Shown: piece by piece, positions 55,254 to 64,000 of the stretch
Layout: each line of letters opens with the position of its first letter
Position numbering within the stretch: the stretch's first letter is position 1
Assembly (NCBI GenBank): GCA_017654855.1
Contig: CM030335.1
Coordinates: 2,542,001-2,606,000 of the forward strand
Direction of reading: 5' to 3'
Source: Podospora anserina
Taxonomy: Eukaryota
DNA: 64,000 nt
The notes under the pieces: generated by a model
What the model saw: only the letters and a program-made list of their open reading frames with translations
What the model was told of the DNA's origin: nothing
The model's database searches: none
Program-made: the position numbers and the translations under genes

Positions 55254-57128
55254 ATGCGTGAGATTGTAAGTTATCGCCAGCTCCATGCCCGAGAGCCCAA
55301 AAGACACGTCCCTGTGGCTTTTTTGGTCCCTGACCCAAAACCCCACCCTCGGGATCACGCCGCAGCAGAGCTTCCTGGGACGACCTCAGGTCGACCGAGG
55401 GCTGCCATGGCGATGGTGCAGTAAACAATATCATGACGACGATAGCTAACCGTTGTCTTCTCTTCAACAGGTCCATCTTCAGACCGGTCAGTGCGTAAGT
55501 AACCGGTCGACTCGAATCCGTCTACCACCACAGCTTGACCGTACTGACACTGCCCTCTCAGGGTAACCAAATTGGTGCCGCCTTCTGGTATGTCAAACCA
55601 CGCTTGCGACTTGGGAATCGATAATATCACAAGTGATTGAAACTGACACCTTCTACAGGCAGATTATCTCCGGCGAGCACGGCTTGGACAGCAATGGCGT
55701 GTATGTGTTATCGTCGGGCCTCGCATCATTCGAATAACCACTCACCGCTCCCATAGGTACAACGGCACTTCCGAGCTCCAGCTCGAGCGCATGAATGTCT
55801 ACTTCAACGAGGTACATACCCAACACGATGCCTTCACCGCTGTCACATCACCATATCATGGCTAACACCTTTGTTCCTTCAGGCTTCCGGCAACAAGTAT
55901 GTTCCCCGCGCTGTCCTCGTCGATCTCGAGCCCGGCACCATGGACGCTGTCCGTGCTGGTCCATTCGGCCAGCTCTTCCGCCCCGACAACTTCGTCTTCG
56001 GCCAGTCCGGTGCTGGCAACAACTGGGCCAAGGGTCATTACACTGAGGGTGCTGAGCTCGTTGACCAGGTCCTCGACGTTGTCCGTCGTGAGGCCGAAGG
56101 CTGCGACTGCCTCCAGGGTTTCCAGATCACCCACTCCCTTGGTGGTGGTACCGGTGCCGGTATGGGTACCCTTTTGATCTCCAAGATCCGCGAGGAGTTC
56201 CCCGACCGTATGATGGCCACCTTCTCCGTCGTGCCATCGCCCAAGGTTTCCGACACCGTTGTTGAGCCCTACAACGCCACCCTCTCCGTCCATCAGCTTG
56301 TTGAGAACTCCGACGAGACCTTCTGCATTGACAACGAGGCTCTCTACGACATCTGCATGCGCACCCTCAAGCTCCCTAACCCCTCGTATGGTGATCTCAA
56401 CCACCTCGTCTCCGCCGTCATGTCCGGTGTGACCGTTTCTCTCCGTTTCCCCGGCCAGCTCAACTCTGATCTCCGCAAGTTGGCTGTCAACATGGTTCCT
56501 TTCCCTCGTCTCCACTTCTTCATGGTCGGCTTCGCTCCCCTGACCAGCCGTGGCGCCCACTCTTTCCGCGCCGTGTCCGTTCCCGAGTTGACCCAGCAGA
56601 TGTTCGACCCCAAGAACATGATGGCTGCTTCCGACTTCCGCAACGGTCGTTACCTCACTTGCTCTGCCATCTTGTAAGTTTTGCCACGCTTCATTGATTA
56701 ACCAGCAAGTTCCAAAGTATACTGACTCTGTTTCTAGCCGTGGCAAGGTCTCTATGAAGGAGGTTGAGGATCAGATGCGCAACGTGCAGAACAAGAACTC
56801 GTCTTACTTCGTTGAGTGGATTCCCAACAACGTCCAGACCGCTCTCTGCTCCATCCCTCCCCGTGGCCTCAAGATGTCGTCGACCTTCGTCGGTAACTCT
56901 ACTGCTATCCAGGAGCTCTTCAAGCGCATTGGCGAGCAGTTCACTGCCATGTTCCGTCGCAAGGCTTTCTTGCATTGGTACACTGGTGAGGGTATGGACG
57001 AGATGGAGTTTACTGAGGCTGAGTCCAACATGAACGATCTCGTTTCGGAGTACCAGCAATACCAGGATGCTGGTGTTGATGAGGAGGAGGAGGAGTACGA
57101 GGAGGAGGCCCCCGCTGAGGAGGAGTAG
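55254..57128 (+). CDS. tub2: Beta-tubulin
   Basis: Exons 55254-55265, 55471-55494, 55562-55587, 55659-55700, 55757-55811, 55883-56673, 56738-57128; [26 protein letters not shown], acidic tail; E198/F200 region reads wild-type (DETFCID). Confidence 0.99.
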
Positions 57129-58541: not shown

Positions 58542-60062
58542 TCAACGAGCCTGGCTTCCATTCACATACGTCCCATTCCCGTTGGCCTGGCCATTCACAC
58601 CGTTCCCATTCGCCTGACTCTGCGGTGGAACATTCTCATACCCGTGATGTTGGTGCTGGACATCAGTAGGACTATCATGCACCACCATCCCAGTCAACCC
58701 ATTCATCGTGCTTCCTCTCCTAACCAGAGAAATAGTCGTGTTCATCGTCGCCGTCCTCGTCATAACCGGGCTCCCCGTGCGAGTCCGTCGCAGCCTCGGT
58801 ACGGCCCTCCCAGTCTCACGCTCCGCCTCACAATTCCCACAAGCGCCCGCGCCCCCTGCAATCGCCAACCGTCTAAACAACGGATACAAGTCATGAGCCA
58901 TGGGCCTTTTAGTAAAATCCGCATCCATCATGGCTCGAATCACAGGCAATATCTCCTTGATCGCAGCCGCCGATTCGGCCTTCTTGGGGTTGCTGTCGAT
59001 GAGCCGGTCCGCAATCTGGCACAGGTGGAAGAGGTAGGCATCAAGACGTTCGAGGGACTCCGAGTACTTGAACTCCCCCAGGTTGTCCGTCCTCAATTGC
59101 TGCTCGGCGAAATCAGGCGGTCGCCCCAGCAATGTGGTGGCCATTTCTAGGAACACACATCCAAGGGAAAAGACATCGGACCGCTCGTCTCGCTGGGTTT
59201 CGTTGATGGCCTCGGGGTCGGCGTACTTGAGTGTCTTGGGCGTGGGTCCTTCCGAGTGCTGACCGGTCTCAAAGTGCTTTGACAAGCCAAAATCGGTTAA
59301 TACGGGAAGAAGAAAATCGTCAATGACAATATTTTCGGGCTTGATATCTTTGTGCCGGATTCGAATGTTACTTCTGTGGAGGAATGCCACGGCTTGTGAC
59401 AAGCATCCGAAATACGTATGCAGGGCGGCCTCGTTTTCCGGCTCGCGACTGTTGATGATGTGGTTCATGAAGAAGCGGAGGTTGCATTGTGCTGGAGGGT
59501 ACATGGCAATGCCCAGTATGTGCTTCTTGATTTGTTGATCAACTCTGATAGCTTTGACCTTCGCTCTCTGCTGCCTCCTCACCCCAGTTGAGATGCAGTA
59601 ATCTTCAAAGCTGGCCACGTAAACGACGATATGGGGGTGTTTGATCGAGGCCATGTTCCTTACTTCCTCCAAGGCCAGCATCCTGACGTGGCTGTCAGGC
59701 CCGGGTGGCCGTAAATTATCCTTGCAAGTGATAATCTTCAAGGCAAGTGGCCGCCGATATGGATATCCTTCAGGGACATTGACTTTGTATACGACCGTGG
59801 TTCCAGATTCTCCAAGCTGCTCGCCGATCTGAATGAACGGATGGGGGGCCCTGATATATTCCTTATTGGCATGGTGGAAGACCTTATGCTTGCTATCATC
59901 AAGCCCTGCTCTTTCCACTGGCCGGATCCAAGCTTCGCCCGTCTCACGGCCCTCCTCGTCCCAGATGAAGTGCTCGTCGTCTCGCCAGTCTAGGAACTCA
60001 TCAAGCGTAATAGGCTGTGACTGGGTGATAGACTGGCTACTGTTGGCCGAATCGAACGACAT
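58542..60062 (-). CDS. Fungal Ser/Thr protein kinase (~506 aa)
   Basis: First AUG at 60062 (MSFDSAN); LGESGTTVVYKV, LALK, EEVRNM, HKDIKPENI, TDFGLS, YADPE, SDVFSLGCV. Confidence 0.9.
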   Translation of the reverse strand: MSFDSANSSQSITQSQPITLDEFLDWRDDEHFIWDEEGRETGEAWIRPVERAGLDDSKHKVFHHANKEYIRAPHPFIQIGEQLGESGTTVVYKVNVPEGYPYRRPLALKIITCKDNLRPPGPDSHVRMLALEEVRNMASIKHPHIVVYVASFEDYCISTGVRRQQRAKVKAIRVDQQIKKHILGIAMYPPAQCNLRFFMNHIINSREPENEAALHTYFGCLSQAVAFLHRSNIRIRHKDIKPENIVIDDFLLPVLTDFGLSKHFETGQHSEGPTPKTLKYADPEAINETQRDERSDVFSLGCVFLEMATTLLGRPPDFAEQQLRTDNLGEFKYSESLERLDAYLFHLCQIADRLIDSNPKKAESAAAIKEILPVIRAMMDADFTKRPMAHDLYPLFRRLAIAGGAGACGNCEAERETGRAVPRLRRTRTGSPVMTRTATMNTTISLVRRGSTMNGLTGMVVHDSPTDVQHQHHGYENVPPQSQANGNGVNGQANGNGTYVNGSQAR

Positions 60063-60146
60063 GGGAAGTGCCTGTGTGACAGGCTCCGCAACGCAGGACA
60101 CAACCAGGTCCTGTGTCCGGTGGGTGTCTGTTGAGCGACGAAATGC

Positions 60147-60147
<1 letters not shown>

Positions 60148-60178
<31 letters not shown>

Positions 60179-60202
60179 CAGCAGCAGCAGCAGGAGGAGG
60201 AG
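60148..60202. repeat. (GTA)n(GCA)n(GGA)n compound microsatellite
   Basis: Direct reading; lies in the kinase 5' leader. Confidence 0.9.
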
Positions 60203-61789
60203 AAAAGATTTGAAATGGGGATGCAGTGACAGCCGCGCTCAGTATTTGTGTGAGGGTGCACGAACAGGAGGAGGAGTGGCCGGTTTGGCAAAACTGAACG
60301 GTTAGAATTGGTAAAGAAACAGGGAGGACTGGCGAATGAAGTCGAAAAGGCGGGTTGGAGGGAGGCGGACAAGAATTCGCTGGGCAGATTTTGTGTAGTA
60401 GTCTGTTCGCTCTCACCGATGTGTGTACAACAGTGGTCAGCTAAACACGCGCTTGGCACTGTTTTTGGAGAGGACACACAGCCTTAGCCAATGTCACCAA
60501 TCCAATCCACGCCGTGATTCAGCATGCTGCGCAATGCGGCTTGGGTCGTAGGGCCGTCCTGGGGGACCAATGAAAAGTGTTGGAGCGTACCTGGGTTGTC
60601 CTACAGGGAGTGAGGTGCCGGATGGAAGATGGGTGAGGAAGTCCAGCGCGGTACCGGGTTGGAATCTGACTGTCTTCTCAAAGGAACGGGCCGGGCGCAG
60701 CCTAAGTCTGTCGCCCTGTGGCACGCCCCGCAATGCATGCGTGGCAGCGGCAGTTGAAGCTGTTCATGGGTGCCTGATGGTGGGGTCCATCTGACGCCTA
60801 CCCTGACCGATGTCCTGATGTGGTAGTCGCCATCGATTTGGAAGTTCGGGGTAGTAAACAGTCACACGTGGGAAGTAAATAAGCTCTGTGAATCACACCT
60901 TAAACTTTAAAATGAGCCATGCCCCAGAATCGGAGGGGTACTGAGTAGAGTGCACCTTCCTCCGGCCTGGATGACGACGGTGAAAGGGTAGAGGGTTAGG
61001 GTGCGAGATAATGTGGTTCGACTTACACGGGCTCTGCTCGCTGCCGAAATACACACCGAGAAGGCAGGTGACCCAAAACTTTGACAGATGACCACGTATA
61101 TAGTTGGTTTGAAATTTTGCAGCTGTGAACGCTCGTACAATGTTGGAAAGAACGTATATCTTGGCTTTCCCATTCCACTGACCGGAGGCGTTCCACCCCG
61201 ATTGCCTTGAGATGTCGAGATTTTGAGCATCATGACTCTTGCGGGTTCTTTATCGCGAGAAATGACGAGGCTCTTAAACTTTAACCCGAAGTCAGATATC
61301 CAAACTAAGTACCTACGCTATACGTGTTGGCCGACGCTTTCGATCACAGTATGGGTGCTGTCTGTGAGCCGGGCAAGTGGTTCCCAGAACTGTTGGTAAA
61401 TACGAGCAATGAGAAAATATGATGGAATGTGAGCCTGTCAAGAATAGATACGACTATACATTATTTCATTAGCCTCAGACTTTCATGAGATGTGAGAATG
61501 TTGTGAAGTCAGTGAAGGGCTCTTGCACACCACACAGTGTTCTCGTTGTGGTGGCGTGCAGGGTTCCAGTCTGTCAGATTCGGCTCTGACGAGCTTGCCG
61601 TCTGCTCGGTTCTGCTTGAGGTAAGTTTGCCTGAGACATAACTGGTTCATGCCGTCATAAGGGCCTTGGAGGGTTATGCCACTGGAAAATAAGCGGATTT
61701 ATGTTAAGGATAGTTTGGATGTTTGGGCCTGCAAATATTCCTATAGAAAAGCCAAATCTCAGCAGATGTAGCATCAATTGGAACTAGCC

Positions 61790-61876
61790 GCCCGGCTAGC
61801 TCAATCGGTAGAGCGTGAGACTCTTAAGGAGTACTCCGAAATCTCAAGGTTGTGGGTTCGACCCCCACGTCGGGCT
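61790..61876 (+). tRNA. tRNA-Lys(CTT) with a 14-nt intron
   Basis: Acceptor stem GCCCGGC/GTCGGGC, A box TAGCTCAATCGGTAGAGC, anticodon arm TGAGA-CT-CTT-A, intron ~61827-61840, T loop GGTTCGACCC, T5 terminator at ~61899. Confidence 0.95.
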
Positions 61877-63484
61877 CAATTCCCGTCTCAGACGATTATT
61901 TTTGCTAGAGAGATTCATCTCTCGCTTCTTTTTTCTTGCTTGTGTGTATTATTTCACAACACAACGCTCGGAGATATTCGTCCAGGGTTGTGTTGGACCA
62001 TACATATGATCAATCCCTTGCGTCTGACAGGAAGGCTATCCACTCCCGTATGCTCTCTTACACCATAGACACCTTCTTAACGTGGAAACCGGCTCTCTAG
62101 TTCGATGACACAAACTCCACAAAAACGTCGACGATCATCTAGCGAGGAGCACCAGGTGACCTTTTCCTGTCTCCTTGTAGAGTTCAGGATCGAGATTCAT
62201 AAAACACGCGTGAAACACTGCCACACTGCTCCAAGGTTGACATCGAACAAGAGCAGTCGTATCGCAGGGAGACTGGCGGCTACAATATCCCTTTCATCAT
62301 AGTTGTTGATCAAACCCGCAAACACGTGGAGTTGGCTTCGACGAAGGCAACCGGGCATTCCGAGAGAAGCAAGCATAGCAGACCGAGTGTGCGAATCCAA
62401 ACAAGGAGCCCCGAATTATCCCCTGGCCTCTCGGATCTTTATCTATTATTCGGCTCTACTTGCTCGGATTTAACTTTCTGGTGGTATGCAGTGGCAGGAA
62501 ACGCCTGGCGACGCTCCTGGTGAGCTGTATGTAGGCTGGACACGGCTCCGAAAGTTGCATTTCACTGATGTGCGTCCAGGGCGGAGATTGTGTCCGATAT
62601 GCAGGCCGGAGGAAAGGAGAGAGCCACTTGGGCAGGTTCGAAACTCGGGCCTTTTCGTACTGGCTCTGCATTGTGCATACCTTCATCAGTGAAAAAGATA
62701 TTTGTGACTTGCGGGGGAGCTTTCACCAACTTTCGCTGCCTCTCTCGCTTGCCAGGGTCGACCAGGATCCCCGCGACAGAGGGGTCAACCCCGCAAAGAT
62801 GTTCCACCAATGGTCTAGCCCTTTGCCGACCCCTGTGTGAGGTGCTCACATGCTTTTGCACAATGCACAGAGCACACAGAACACACATGGGAAAAAAGTG
62901 CGACGACAGTTCCAGGTTGTCCAACGAGGGGAAAAAAAGGGTGAGCCGAAACGAACATTGCGCATTGCATTGCGACCGCCCCCGGAACGCCGTTACGGGG
63001 ACTAAAACTACTACCTACCGGACCAGGTCTACACAACACACGCCCCTAATGTGGCAGCAGCAAATCTCGCGGTCGTGGTCGTGGTCATGGACCAGCCGTC
63101 CCAGCTGTATCAGCCATACCAGCCGTAGCTGTAGTAGCAACAGCAACAAAGCCAATCGAAGTACTGTTCCCATTGGGGCGCTGTCCGTCTACTACTCCCG
63201 CGCTCGGCTTAAACAGAGTTGTGAGAATAGCTAGGGCCAGGCCTTAGATGACGTACCCCTCCTGGTCTGTCAGCCTGCCCGCATTCCGTCCCTCCAACCC
63301 CGCGCCGTCTCTCCTTTATCAGTCCCGGCAGTACCACCCCCTACAGTGCCCCGTTCGGTACCGCATTCATATCCTATTCATCCGCCATATCCTGTTATCA
63401 TCCCCCCTCGACTCAATCCTCTGCAGCAGAAACGCCTTCGACCTTTTCACTCTACTGCCTGGTCGCCCCGGAGGAACAAGACAT

Positions 63485-63485
63485 C

Positions 63486-63519
<34 letters not shown>

Positions 63520-63564
63520 CCACCAACAACAACAATAACAACAAGAACAACAACAACAACAACA
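63485..63564. repeat. (CAA)n microsatellite immediately upstream of the glycerol kinase AUG
   Basis: Direct reading; encodes poly-Thr in the kinase frame and poly-Gln in another frame. Confidence 0.92.
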
Positions 63565-63573
63565 GCACACAGC

Positions 63574-64000
63574 ATGGGCGACCTTGGCGACTTCAACCCC
63601 ATTCGCTTCGAAGAAGGCGGCATGGTGATAGACATACCCACGCTGAACCTCGACTCCCTGAAGAAGCCCGAAGCAACCATCACCCCTCTGTACCCCGACC
63701 ACATTCCCACCCTCGAGACGCCCAACTTACATCCGCACCATGATAAGCACCTGCCGCGGGGCATTGAGGAGACACCTGAGGAACAGCGGCGCCACTGGTT
63801 TGTGGGCAGTATCGACCAGGGAACAACGTCATCTCGGTTCCTAATATTCAACGGAGAAGGCGACCCAGTTGCCAGTCACCAACTCGAGTTCGAGAACCTG
63901 TATCCTAAATCCGGGTATGTTGAAGAGCCCGCCACCTGACCCGCATCCCGTTGCTTTGGTCTCCGCTTCCCTGCCTCATCCGCCTCCACCTCCGCATGTG
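63574..64000 (+). CDS. GUT1: Glycerol kinase (3'-truncated by window)
   Basis: FGGY signature FVGSIDQGTTSSRFLIFN..VASHQLEF..YPKSG; donor GTATGT at 63915. Confidence 0.9.

Follow-up and report, generated by a model that had tools for sequence, protein, structure and literature searches.

A conserved leader with an in-frame UAG upstream of the Podospora glycerol kinase, apparently unreported, and a likely N-terminally extended isoform

Introduction

The closest described system is premature-stop-correction (PSC) A-to-I RNA editing in Sordariomycetes, known from PUK1, AMD1, FgRID, and FgAMA1, with 71 genes in Fusarium graminearum (PMC10776026, PMC11156358). The stop-correcting edits described in fungi activate genes, and those causing stop loss lengthen proteins at the C-terminus. 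The glycerol kinase locus analysed here is similar to PSC genes in having a genomic in-frame UAG before the catalytic domain, a context favourable for editing, and a restriction to Sordariomycetes. However, glycerol kinase is no pseudogene without editing, as the complete enzyme is still made from a downstream AUG on a shorter mRNA. Because the gene works without the edit, its UAG is not a standard PSC member. Unlike PSC sites, the UAG here would gate a targeting leader annotated as 5’UTR, and no edited RNA was seen in the contigs of three runs.

FgBUD14 combines editing with alternative splicing of a PSC-containing intron (PMC11156358). Here too, one UAG appears removable by editing or by splicing, but the two routes seem to have been reciprocally lost in sister lineages, and the predicted effect is a change of location. 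Dual-targeted isoforms are also made from alternative start codons or transcripts (PMC11653698; PMC7049704); the accessible part of a review on mitochondrial dual targeting does not bring up editing, and where it cites read-through, this concerns C-terminal signals alone (PMC11653698). As in dual-start genes, an upstream AUG would add a presequence and a downstream AUG would give the cytosolic form, and four glycerol kinase models (P0083, P0173, P0202, and P0203) are uninterrupted in this region. Unlike them, this locus has a fixed in-frame stop between the two AUGs. Isoforms with a PTS1 made by UGA read-through have reportedly been found in fungi. A cryptic peroxisomal isoform of PGD depends on a non-AUG PTS2 (PMC7214817). 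The likeness lies in a metabolic enzyme whose annotated UTR hides a targeting signal conserved among fungi; the differences are a presequence-like N-terminal signal, an internal UAG stop, and no conserved near-cognate start among the loci compared.

No report of this leader, or of any edit-gated presequence, was found in the openly searchable literature. The leader is a real, conserved, and apparently unreported feature; the isoform is likely, and the routes of UAG bypass are putative. With a stop gating a targeting leader, protein location would join the things that such edits control, the gate acting on location and not on activity. Such sites lie in annotated 5’UTRs and would therefore be missed by surveys of edited coding regions. 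If the model is true, further unannotated edit-gated leaders in 5’UTRs may exist.

Results and discussion

The glycerol kinase gene and its leader

The window, meaning the whole stretch of 64,000 nt that was analysed, came from a P. anserina-complex genome and contained the glycerol kinase gene Pa_4_7610 (PODANS_4_7610), as named from its protein cluster. Exon 1 was identical to Podospora glycerol kinases in a protein search, Pfam found FGGY_N and FGGY_C domains, the kinase tested as a member of the FGGY family, and its orthology to named fungal glycerol kinases held. One glycerol kinase locus was found in the whole genome. The protein from the annotated AUG (AUG2, 63574) had 590 aa. None of the 7 members of its cluster was longer, and all 4 members with names began at AUG2. 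Intron 1, from 63915, was spliced in all 4 RNA runs. The leader comprised the following features.

63049..63231, + strand: upstream ORF from AUG1 (MWQQQISRSW..), 61 codons, Ser/Arg-rich, presequence-like, in the kinase frame; from the sequence.
63232..63234, + strand: in-frame UAG, with A63233 the candidate A-to-I site; from sequence and comparison.
63235..63573, + strand: open frame of 113 codons without AUG, from the UAG to the annotated start; from the sequence.
63248..63538, + strand: out-of-frame uORF of 96 codons that starts inside a conserved block; from the sequence.
63439..63456, + strand: R-P-F-H-S-T, a putative mitochondrial processing peptidase site by resemblance.
63474..63573, + strand: (AAC)n repeat, poly-Thr in the kinase frame, at which RNA contigs break.
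63574..63914, + strand: glycerol kinase exon 1 from AUG2, supported by the cluster and Pfam.

The layout given in the original prediction was all present in the window: ATG 63049, a single TAG at 63232-63234 (AGC TAG GGC), 113 ATG-free open codons up to ATG 63574, RLRPFHST at 63433-63456 in the kinase frame, the codons CTG 63262, ATT 63283, and GTG 63346, and the 102-nt in-frame stretch GTGAGA..TATCAG at 63221-63322. Above the TAG the kinase frame was open for 221 codons, with extra in-frame ATGs at 62599, 62863, and 62887; the ATGs at 63087 and 63248 were out of frame with the kinase. Two Asp residues of the extension lay just 3’ of the TAG. Pfam searches with the upstream ORF, the 221-codon frame, and the 96-codon uORF gave no family. 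In dinucleotide shuffles (n = 2000), the 81 non-repeat codons after the TAG stayed open in 15%, at most one stop remained over 63052-63477 in 3.9%, and the cleavage-like motif arose in 1.9%. The leader signal from the window alone was modest, and it rises above chance because the leader is conserved in relatives.

We propose that two mRNAs are made from the gene. The short one would be dominant, would start below the UAG in agreement with published 5’ ends, and would give the 590-aa glycerol kinase from AUG 63574, probably in the cytosol. A minor long mRNA, in line with the upstream RNA seen, would start between a CCAAT box and AUG 63049, and translation from this AUG would usually stop at UAG 63232. 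Left unedited, the long mRNA would probably be degraded, a possible reason for its minor level. Bypass of the UAG would yield a 765-aa precursor, 175 aa of which form an acid-poor extension; mitochondria would probably import it, with cleavage near R-P-F-H-S-T, at about residue 133. Sexual-stage A-to-I editing by the Tad2-Tad3-Ame1 system would be the likeliest bypass, turning UAG into UGG at A63233; a second route, in Podosporaceae and Chaetomiaceae, may be a weak intron over the UAG. Our guess is that the isoform would provide mitochondrial glycerol-3-phosphate for phospholipid synthesis in fruiting-body or spore development. From the sequence comparisons that follow, we consider it quite probable that an N-terminally extended isoform exists and is selected, and we give editing an even chance of being the main bypass route overall.

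Conservation across fungi

From a metagenome scan with 425 confirmed glycerol kinase loci, the best 80 were analysed and assigned to classes by best hits and a tree, for which L019, L022, and L048 were too short. Among these best 80 were 27 Sordariomycete loci, and 22 distinct ones were kept. Four duplicates (L021, L023, L027, and L044) were set aside, and L050 was as well, because its upstream DNA failed to align with that of its relative L048. Two loci left out of the 22 spoke against the model: a 1-nt insertion broke the upstream frame of L027, and L050 was without the layout.

Within the best 80 of 425 loci, the layout of an AUG, a presequence-like peptide, an in-frame UAG, an open frame, and the annotated AUG characterised 17 of the 22 distinct loci from Sordariomycetes, and none of the 39 distinct loci outside this class had it. 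The question of TGG or a conserved TAG in orthologues was answered for TAG, the first in-frame stop being the matching TAG in 17 of the 22; among the non-Sordariomycete loci of the same 80 that had a stop, the first one was also TAG in 18 of 37. Loci with the layout spanned Sordariales, Coniochaetales, Microascales, and Xylariales-like branches. In all 17 testable sequences (the window and the 16 of these TAG loci with enough sequence), an in-frame ATG lay 35 or more codons above the UAG, compared with 2 of 34 control frames, and several AUG1 peptides started with M-W-x-x-Q/H. The open frame from the UAG to AUG2 ranged from 108 to 360 nt in relatives. Conservation across the Sordariomycetes of this sample held for the upstream AUG and the in-frame UAG as well as for the open frame and an R-x-F-x-S/T motif, which supports the original prediction on these points.

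Indels were counted in the three closest clean pairs only (L015/L019, L016/L017, and L011/L014), as more distant pairs align too poorly; 7 of 7 indels in the two leader segments were multiples of 3, versus 2 of 12 further upstream. Substitutions by codon position were 14/12/16 and 18/16/18 in the two segments. With no codon-position bias in either segment, the constraint therefore falls on frame and composition and not on sequence. This lack of bias agrees with an extension that is vestigial or accidental in Podospora, where the cytosolic enzyme alone would be made. So do the AUG2 starts of the named cluster members and the failure to find recoded RNA or protein, in the contigs of the three runs covering the UAG and among 8000 proteins scored in a profile search. 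However, the window keeps the frame, the stop type, the upstream AUG, the motif, and the promoter element as its relatives do, and we judge a vestige highly improbable.

Protein databases were also searched. No Sordariales protein carrying the extension was present among the best 120 of 405 matches, nor among the best 120 of 295. The profile, built from 11 read-through peptides, found 2 proteins among the 8000 scored; both match loci analysed here (L019, L015) and do not extend across the stop. Separately, long uninterrupted presequence-like N-termini were seen in the glycerol kinase models P0083, P0173, P0188, P0201, P0202, and P0203, whose sources include Colletotrichum, Xylogone, Xylariales, and Pseudogymnoascus. 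P0149 (an old N. crassa model) and P0222 (Lomentospora) had AUG1-like starts, as if the predictor had spliced around the stop. An intron-less Leotiomycete contig (L040:1-411) had at least 136 open codons above a TAG, encoding RRARYFSS within them, and no ATG before the contig end; it is a possible case outside Sordariomycetes.

Presequence character of the extension

Over the first 35 residues, no more than one acidic residue together with a net charge of +3 or higher was seen in 16 of 20 AUG1 peptides, compared with 26% of 396 controls; this score is a simple residue count and not a trained predictor, and AUG1 was picked by eye where there were several. The window peptide had 4 basic and 0 acidic residues in this stretch. 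The pattern R-x-[FYL]-x-[ST]-[ST], which was defined after inspecting the data, occurred within the last 50 codons before AUG2 in the kinase frame of 15 of 23 loci from the best 80 of 425, and in 0 of 46 control frames. In the window this is R-P-F-H-S-T, which we take to be similar to a mitochondrial processing peptidase site. It lies at residue 131 from AUG1, and presequences are normally shorter than a site at this position would imply.

The UAG context and A-to-I editing

In the best 80 of 425 loci, the stop was UAG in 18 of 18 sequences (window included), versus 86 of 275 background stops. Taken over about 8 independent lineages, this constancy has a probability of 9e-5, or about 0.003 using the 49% rate outside the class. 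In fungal editing, position -2 is preferably C or U and position +2 preferably G, with purines favoured at +1, +3, and +4 (PMC9600606). The window context, C-UAG-G-G, has 5 of the 6 preferred positions, with C at +4, and so bears out the suggestion that this UAG suits fungal A-to-I editing. Preferred bases at -2, +2, and +3 were found in 15, 15, and 18 of the 18, versus 51%, 22%, and 50% of 324 other TAGs, and position +4 had a disfavoured base in 15 of 18 and a preferred one in 3. By lineage, the preferred base at -2, +2, +3, and +4 was present in 6, 6, 8, and 2 of the 8. The candidate edited A, for which PSC sites have a place in a hairpin loop, had a predicted unpaired probability of 0.2 in the window (paired) and at least 0.7 in 11 of 19 loci, these predictions having no control set; its placement in a loop was inconsistent among loci. 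No covarying or conserved RNA structure was found around the stop.

As at PSC sites, the TAG of the window lies between an upstream AUG and the conserved domain; PSC genes make no full-length protein without editing, whereas here AUG 63574 and the short mRNAs yield it. The origin of the editing machinery lies in the ancestor of the Sordariomycetes (PMC10776026), in agreement with where the layout was found. We ranked editing as the likeliest bypass on three grounds: all loci with an unbroken frame have UAG as the stop, the context fits, and the layout occurred only in Sordariomycetes among the best 80 of 425 loci. The intron-less metagenome contigs L013 and L044 read TAG too, which counts against editing. 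NCU06005 is presumably the N. crassa glycerol kinase orthologue. The part of the N. crassa editing table that was covered (CDS rows only) held one row for it, a synonymous CDS edit (PMC13431901). SMAC_07929 had no match in the searchable S. macrospora supplements (PMC5381528, PMC6794485), and glycerol kinase was absent from the accessible Fusarium PSC gene table, which has function and domain columns.

Low, constant read-through of the UAG, aided by the conserved block 3’ of it, would instead provide a small mitochondrial pool at all stages. It accounts for unedited, unspliced RNA and for the nucleotide-level conservation 3’ of the stop, and would be favoured by the mitochondrial glycerol kinase activity that has reportedly been seen in vegetative Neurospora. 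The stop is UAG in 18 of 18, whereas the fungal dual-targeting read-through context is, going by the title of a report, said to be UGA. There was also no conserved downstream structure, and the layout was absent from the 39 non-Sordariomycete loci of the best 80. Read-through is thus a distinctly unlikely explanation in our estimate.

A candidate intron across the UAG

63221..63322, + strand: candidate 102-nt in-frame intron GTGAGA..TATCAG, which would remove the UAG; donor position shared with relatives.

Among the best 80 of 425, the UAG frame was broken in 5 of the 22 Sordariomycete loci, namely L010, L011, L012, L014, and L022 (Staphylotrichum-like), where either 4 nt were inserted or a TAA was accompanied by a 1-nt deletion. 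A predicted intron, GTACGA..TCTGAC..CCAAAG, of 83, 82, 77, 82, and 82 nt, restores the frame from AUG1 to the kinase in 5 of 5. The donor position of GTGAGA in the window coincides with that of GTACGA in 7 Chaetomiaceae loci. In the sister pair L016/L017 the donor was lost and the in-frame UAG kept, L013 and L018 kept both, and the window kept the UAG and its GTGAGA donor but lost the TCTGAC branch and the AAG acceptor. No CTRAY branch site was present in the window intron, no splice donor was scored in L016, L017, L025, L037, L039, or L045, and most UAG loci were without a usable donor. Two other readings were rejected. The W at the stop position of L011 and L022 was not a TAG-to-TGG change but the 4-nt insertion, and the TAG or the next CAG could not serve as a phase-0 acceptor in Podospora, since there was no consensus phase-0 donor below AUG1; such an acceptor is possible in Microascales, where model P0222 looks so spliced.

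The extended isoform looks selected because the layout is conserved, the predicted intron restores the frame in 5 of 5, and a sister lineage kept the UAG without a donor. The reciprocal loss of UAG and intron speaks most strongly for selection on the fusion and for the existence of a bypass other than splicing, and editing and splicing look like two interchangeable bypasses. This reciprocal retention in sister lineages is a natural test of their interchangeability, a point of relevance to the debated adaptive value of editing in fungi. More tentatively, and with somewhat more doubt than belief, we suggest that across Sordariomycetes sexual-stage editing of an ancient UAG may act as an organelle-targeting switch, adding a mitochondrial presequence to a housekeeping enzyme that would otherwise stay cytosolic, and that some lineages replaced the edit by a new intron.

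The weak intron offered earlier as a further alternative fared differently by lineage: it was weak in the window and unspliced in three runs, yet by sequence it was the best-supported route in one Chaetomiaceae clade. In Podospora the extended isoform might be made mainly by splicing of 63221-63322, with a 731-aa precursor and the UAG as an intron-retention stop. The five predicted frame-restoring introns, the donor position retained as GTGAGA, and the precedent of FgBUD14, with editing plus splicing of a PSC intron (PMC11156358), argue for it. However, the window is without the TCTGAC branch and AAG acceptor, the contigs were unspliced in 3 runs, Pa_4_7610 appeared in Table S1 alone among 3 supplement files searched, and six loci have no scored donor. 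Splicing as the main route in Podospora is, in our view, unlikely, and editing is retained as the preferred bypass.

RNA across the leader

RNA contigs were examined from 4 of 23 listed runs, for which the stage is not recorded; contigs drop rare variants, and their depth, being unsuited to ranking gene parts, was not used as a level. None of the runs listed was recorded as RNA, but the 4 examined proved to be spliced. AUG 63049 was covered in 4 of 4 runs and the UAG in 3 (X10, X2, and X4, from three studies). All 3 read TAG with no G at A63233, and none had a joint across 63221-63322, contigs of this kind showing presence and not absence. The mitochondrial isoform of the original prediction therefore stands in part: leader conservation and editing context support it, but no edited or spliced RNA was seen in the contigs. 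RNA transcribed upstream of AUG2 exists in these runs. The upstream contigs began at 62940 (X10), 62920 (X14), and 62797 (X4), and that of X2 extended higher, about 490 nt above 62400. The AAC repeat was bridged by no contig among the 4 runs, and the upstream RNA is therefore not linked to the kinase mRNA by contigs. The X2 contig also passed through a spliced 53-nt GTATGT..CCAG intron at 62527-62579 (+), which joins ATG 62486 to the open frame ending at TAG 63232; this is possibly a longer leader or a non-coding RNA.

The 5’ ends and conserved elements

about 63309-63494, + strand: 5’ ends of the main (short) mRNA, from 8 StringTie transcripts (PMC9801653 Table S1).
62802..62813, + strand: CCAAT-box element TTCCACCAATGG, probable promoter of the long transcript including AUG 63049; from comparison.
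63229..63254, + strand: nucleotide-conserved block AGCTAGGGCCAGGCC..TGACGT around the stop, candidate recoding signal or short-mRNA promoter module.

The accessible Table S1 lists 8 StringTie transcripts of Pa_4_7610 with 5’UTRs of 80-265 nt, two of them from the sexual-development series; their ends are coverage-based and not capped starts (PMC9801653). As a check of the mapping, the ATG of the neighbour gene is 3514 nt away according to the table, compared with 3512 nt in the window. A transcription start below the leader had been named in advance as evidence against the extension, and the published ends go part of the way, with 8 of 8 lying below the UAG, AUG 63049, CTG 63262, and ATT 63283. 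The UAG could therefore be carried only by a minor long transcript. For the probable start of this transcript, the element of interest is CACCAAT, seen in 17 of 23 Sordariomycete loci (window included; best 80 of 425) at 300-434 nt upstream of the UAG position and in all three frames.

The block around the stop varied non-synonymously, as a DNA or RNA element does rather than codons, and possibly also serves as the short-mRNA promoter. Its TGACGT is presumably CRE-like. The block had one exact copy in the genome, and the idea of a repeated genome motif was dropped, as there was no enrichment. Most Sordariales loci had ATG or CTG at the start position of the uORF (63248, in the TGACGT block).

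Near-cognate initiation, also put forward earlier, was not borne out, as no near-cognate codon was conserved among the loci compared (best 80 of 425). A related explanation would confine the presequence to the part below the UAG, translated from a non-AUG start on the short mRNA (e.g. CTG 63421), with the block as a promoter module of GGCCNGGCC and TGACGT. The main 5’ ends lie 55-240 nt below TGACGT, the block varies as a DNA element would, the presequence would be of normal length, a genuine AUG occurs in the segment below the UAG in L015, L019, and L025, and fungal PGD provides a precedent (PMC7214817). The in-frame AUG1 of all 17 testable sequences and the frame-restoring intron would be left unexplained, however, and a presequence-like part lies above the UAG in L024, L034, L039, L045, and L070. 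With no conserved near-cognate codon and no enrichment of the block in the genome, we hold a non-AUG start to be very unlikely, and the UAG-gated extension from AUG1 is preferred.

Neighbouring genes

A protein kinase gene, probably Pa_4_7620, lay at 58542-60440 on the - strand and is directed away from glycerol kinase; its frame was open for 126 codons above ATG 60062, across a trinucleotide repeat. We take 55757-57128 (+) to be beta-tubulin exons, by their sequence features. A tRNA-Leu(TAA) gene was located at 61790-61877 (+), directly above the inferred start of the X2 RNA contig.
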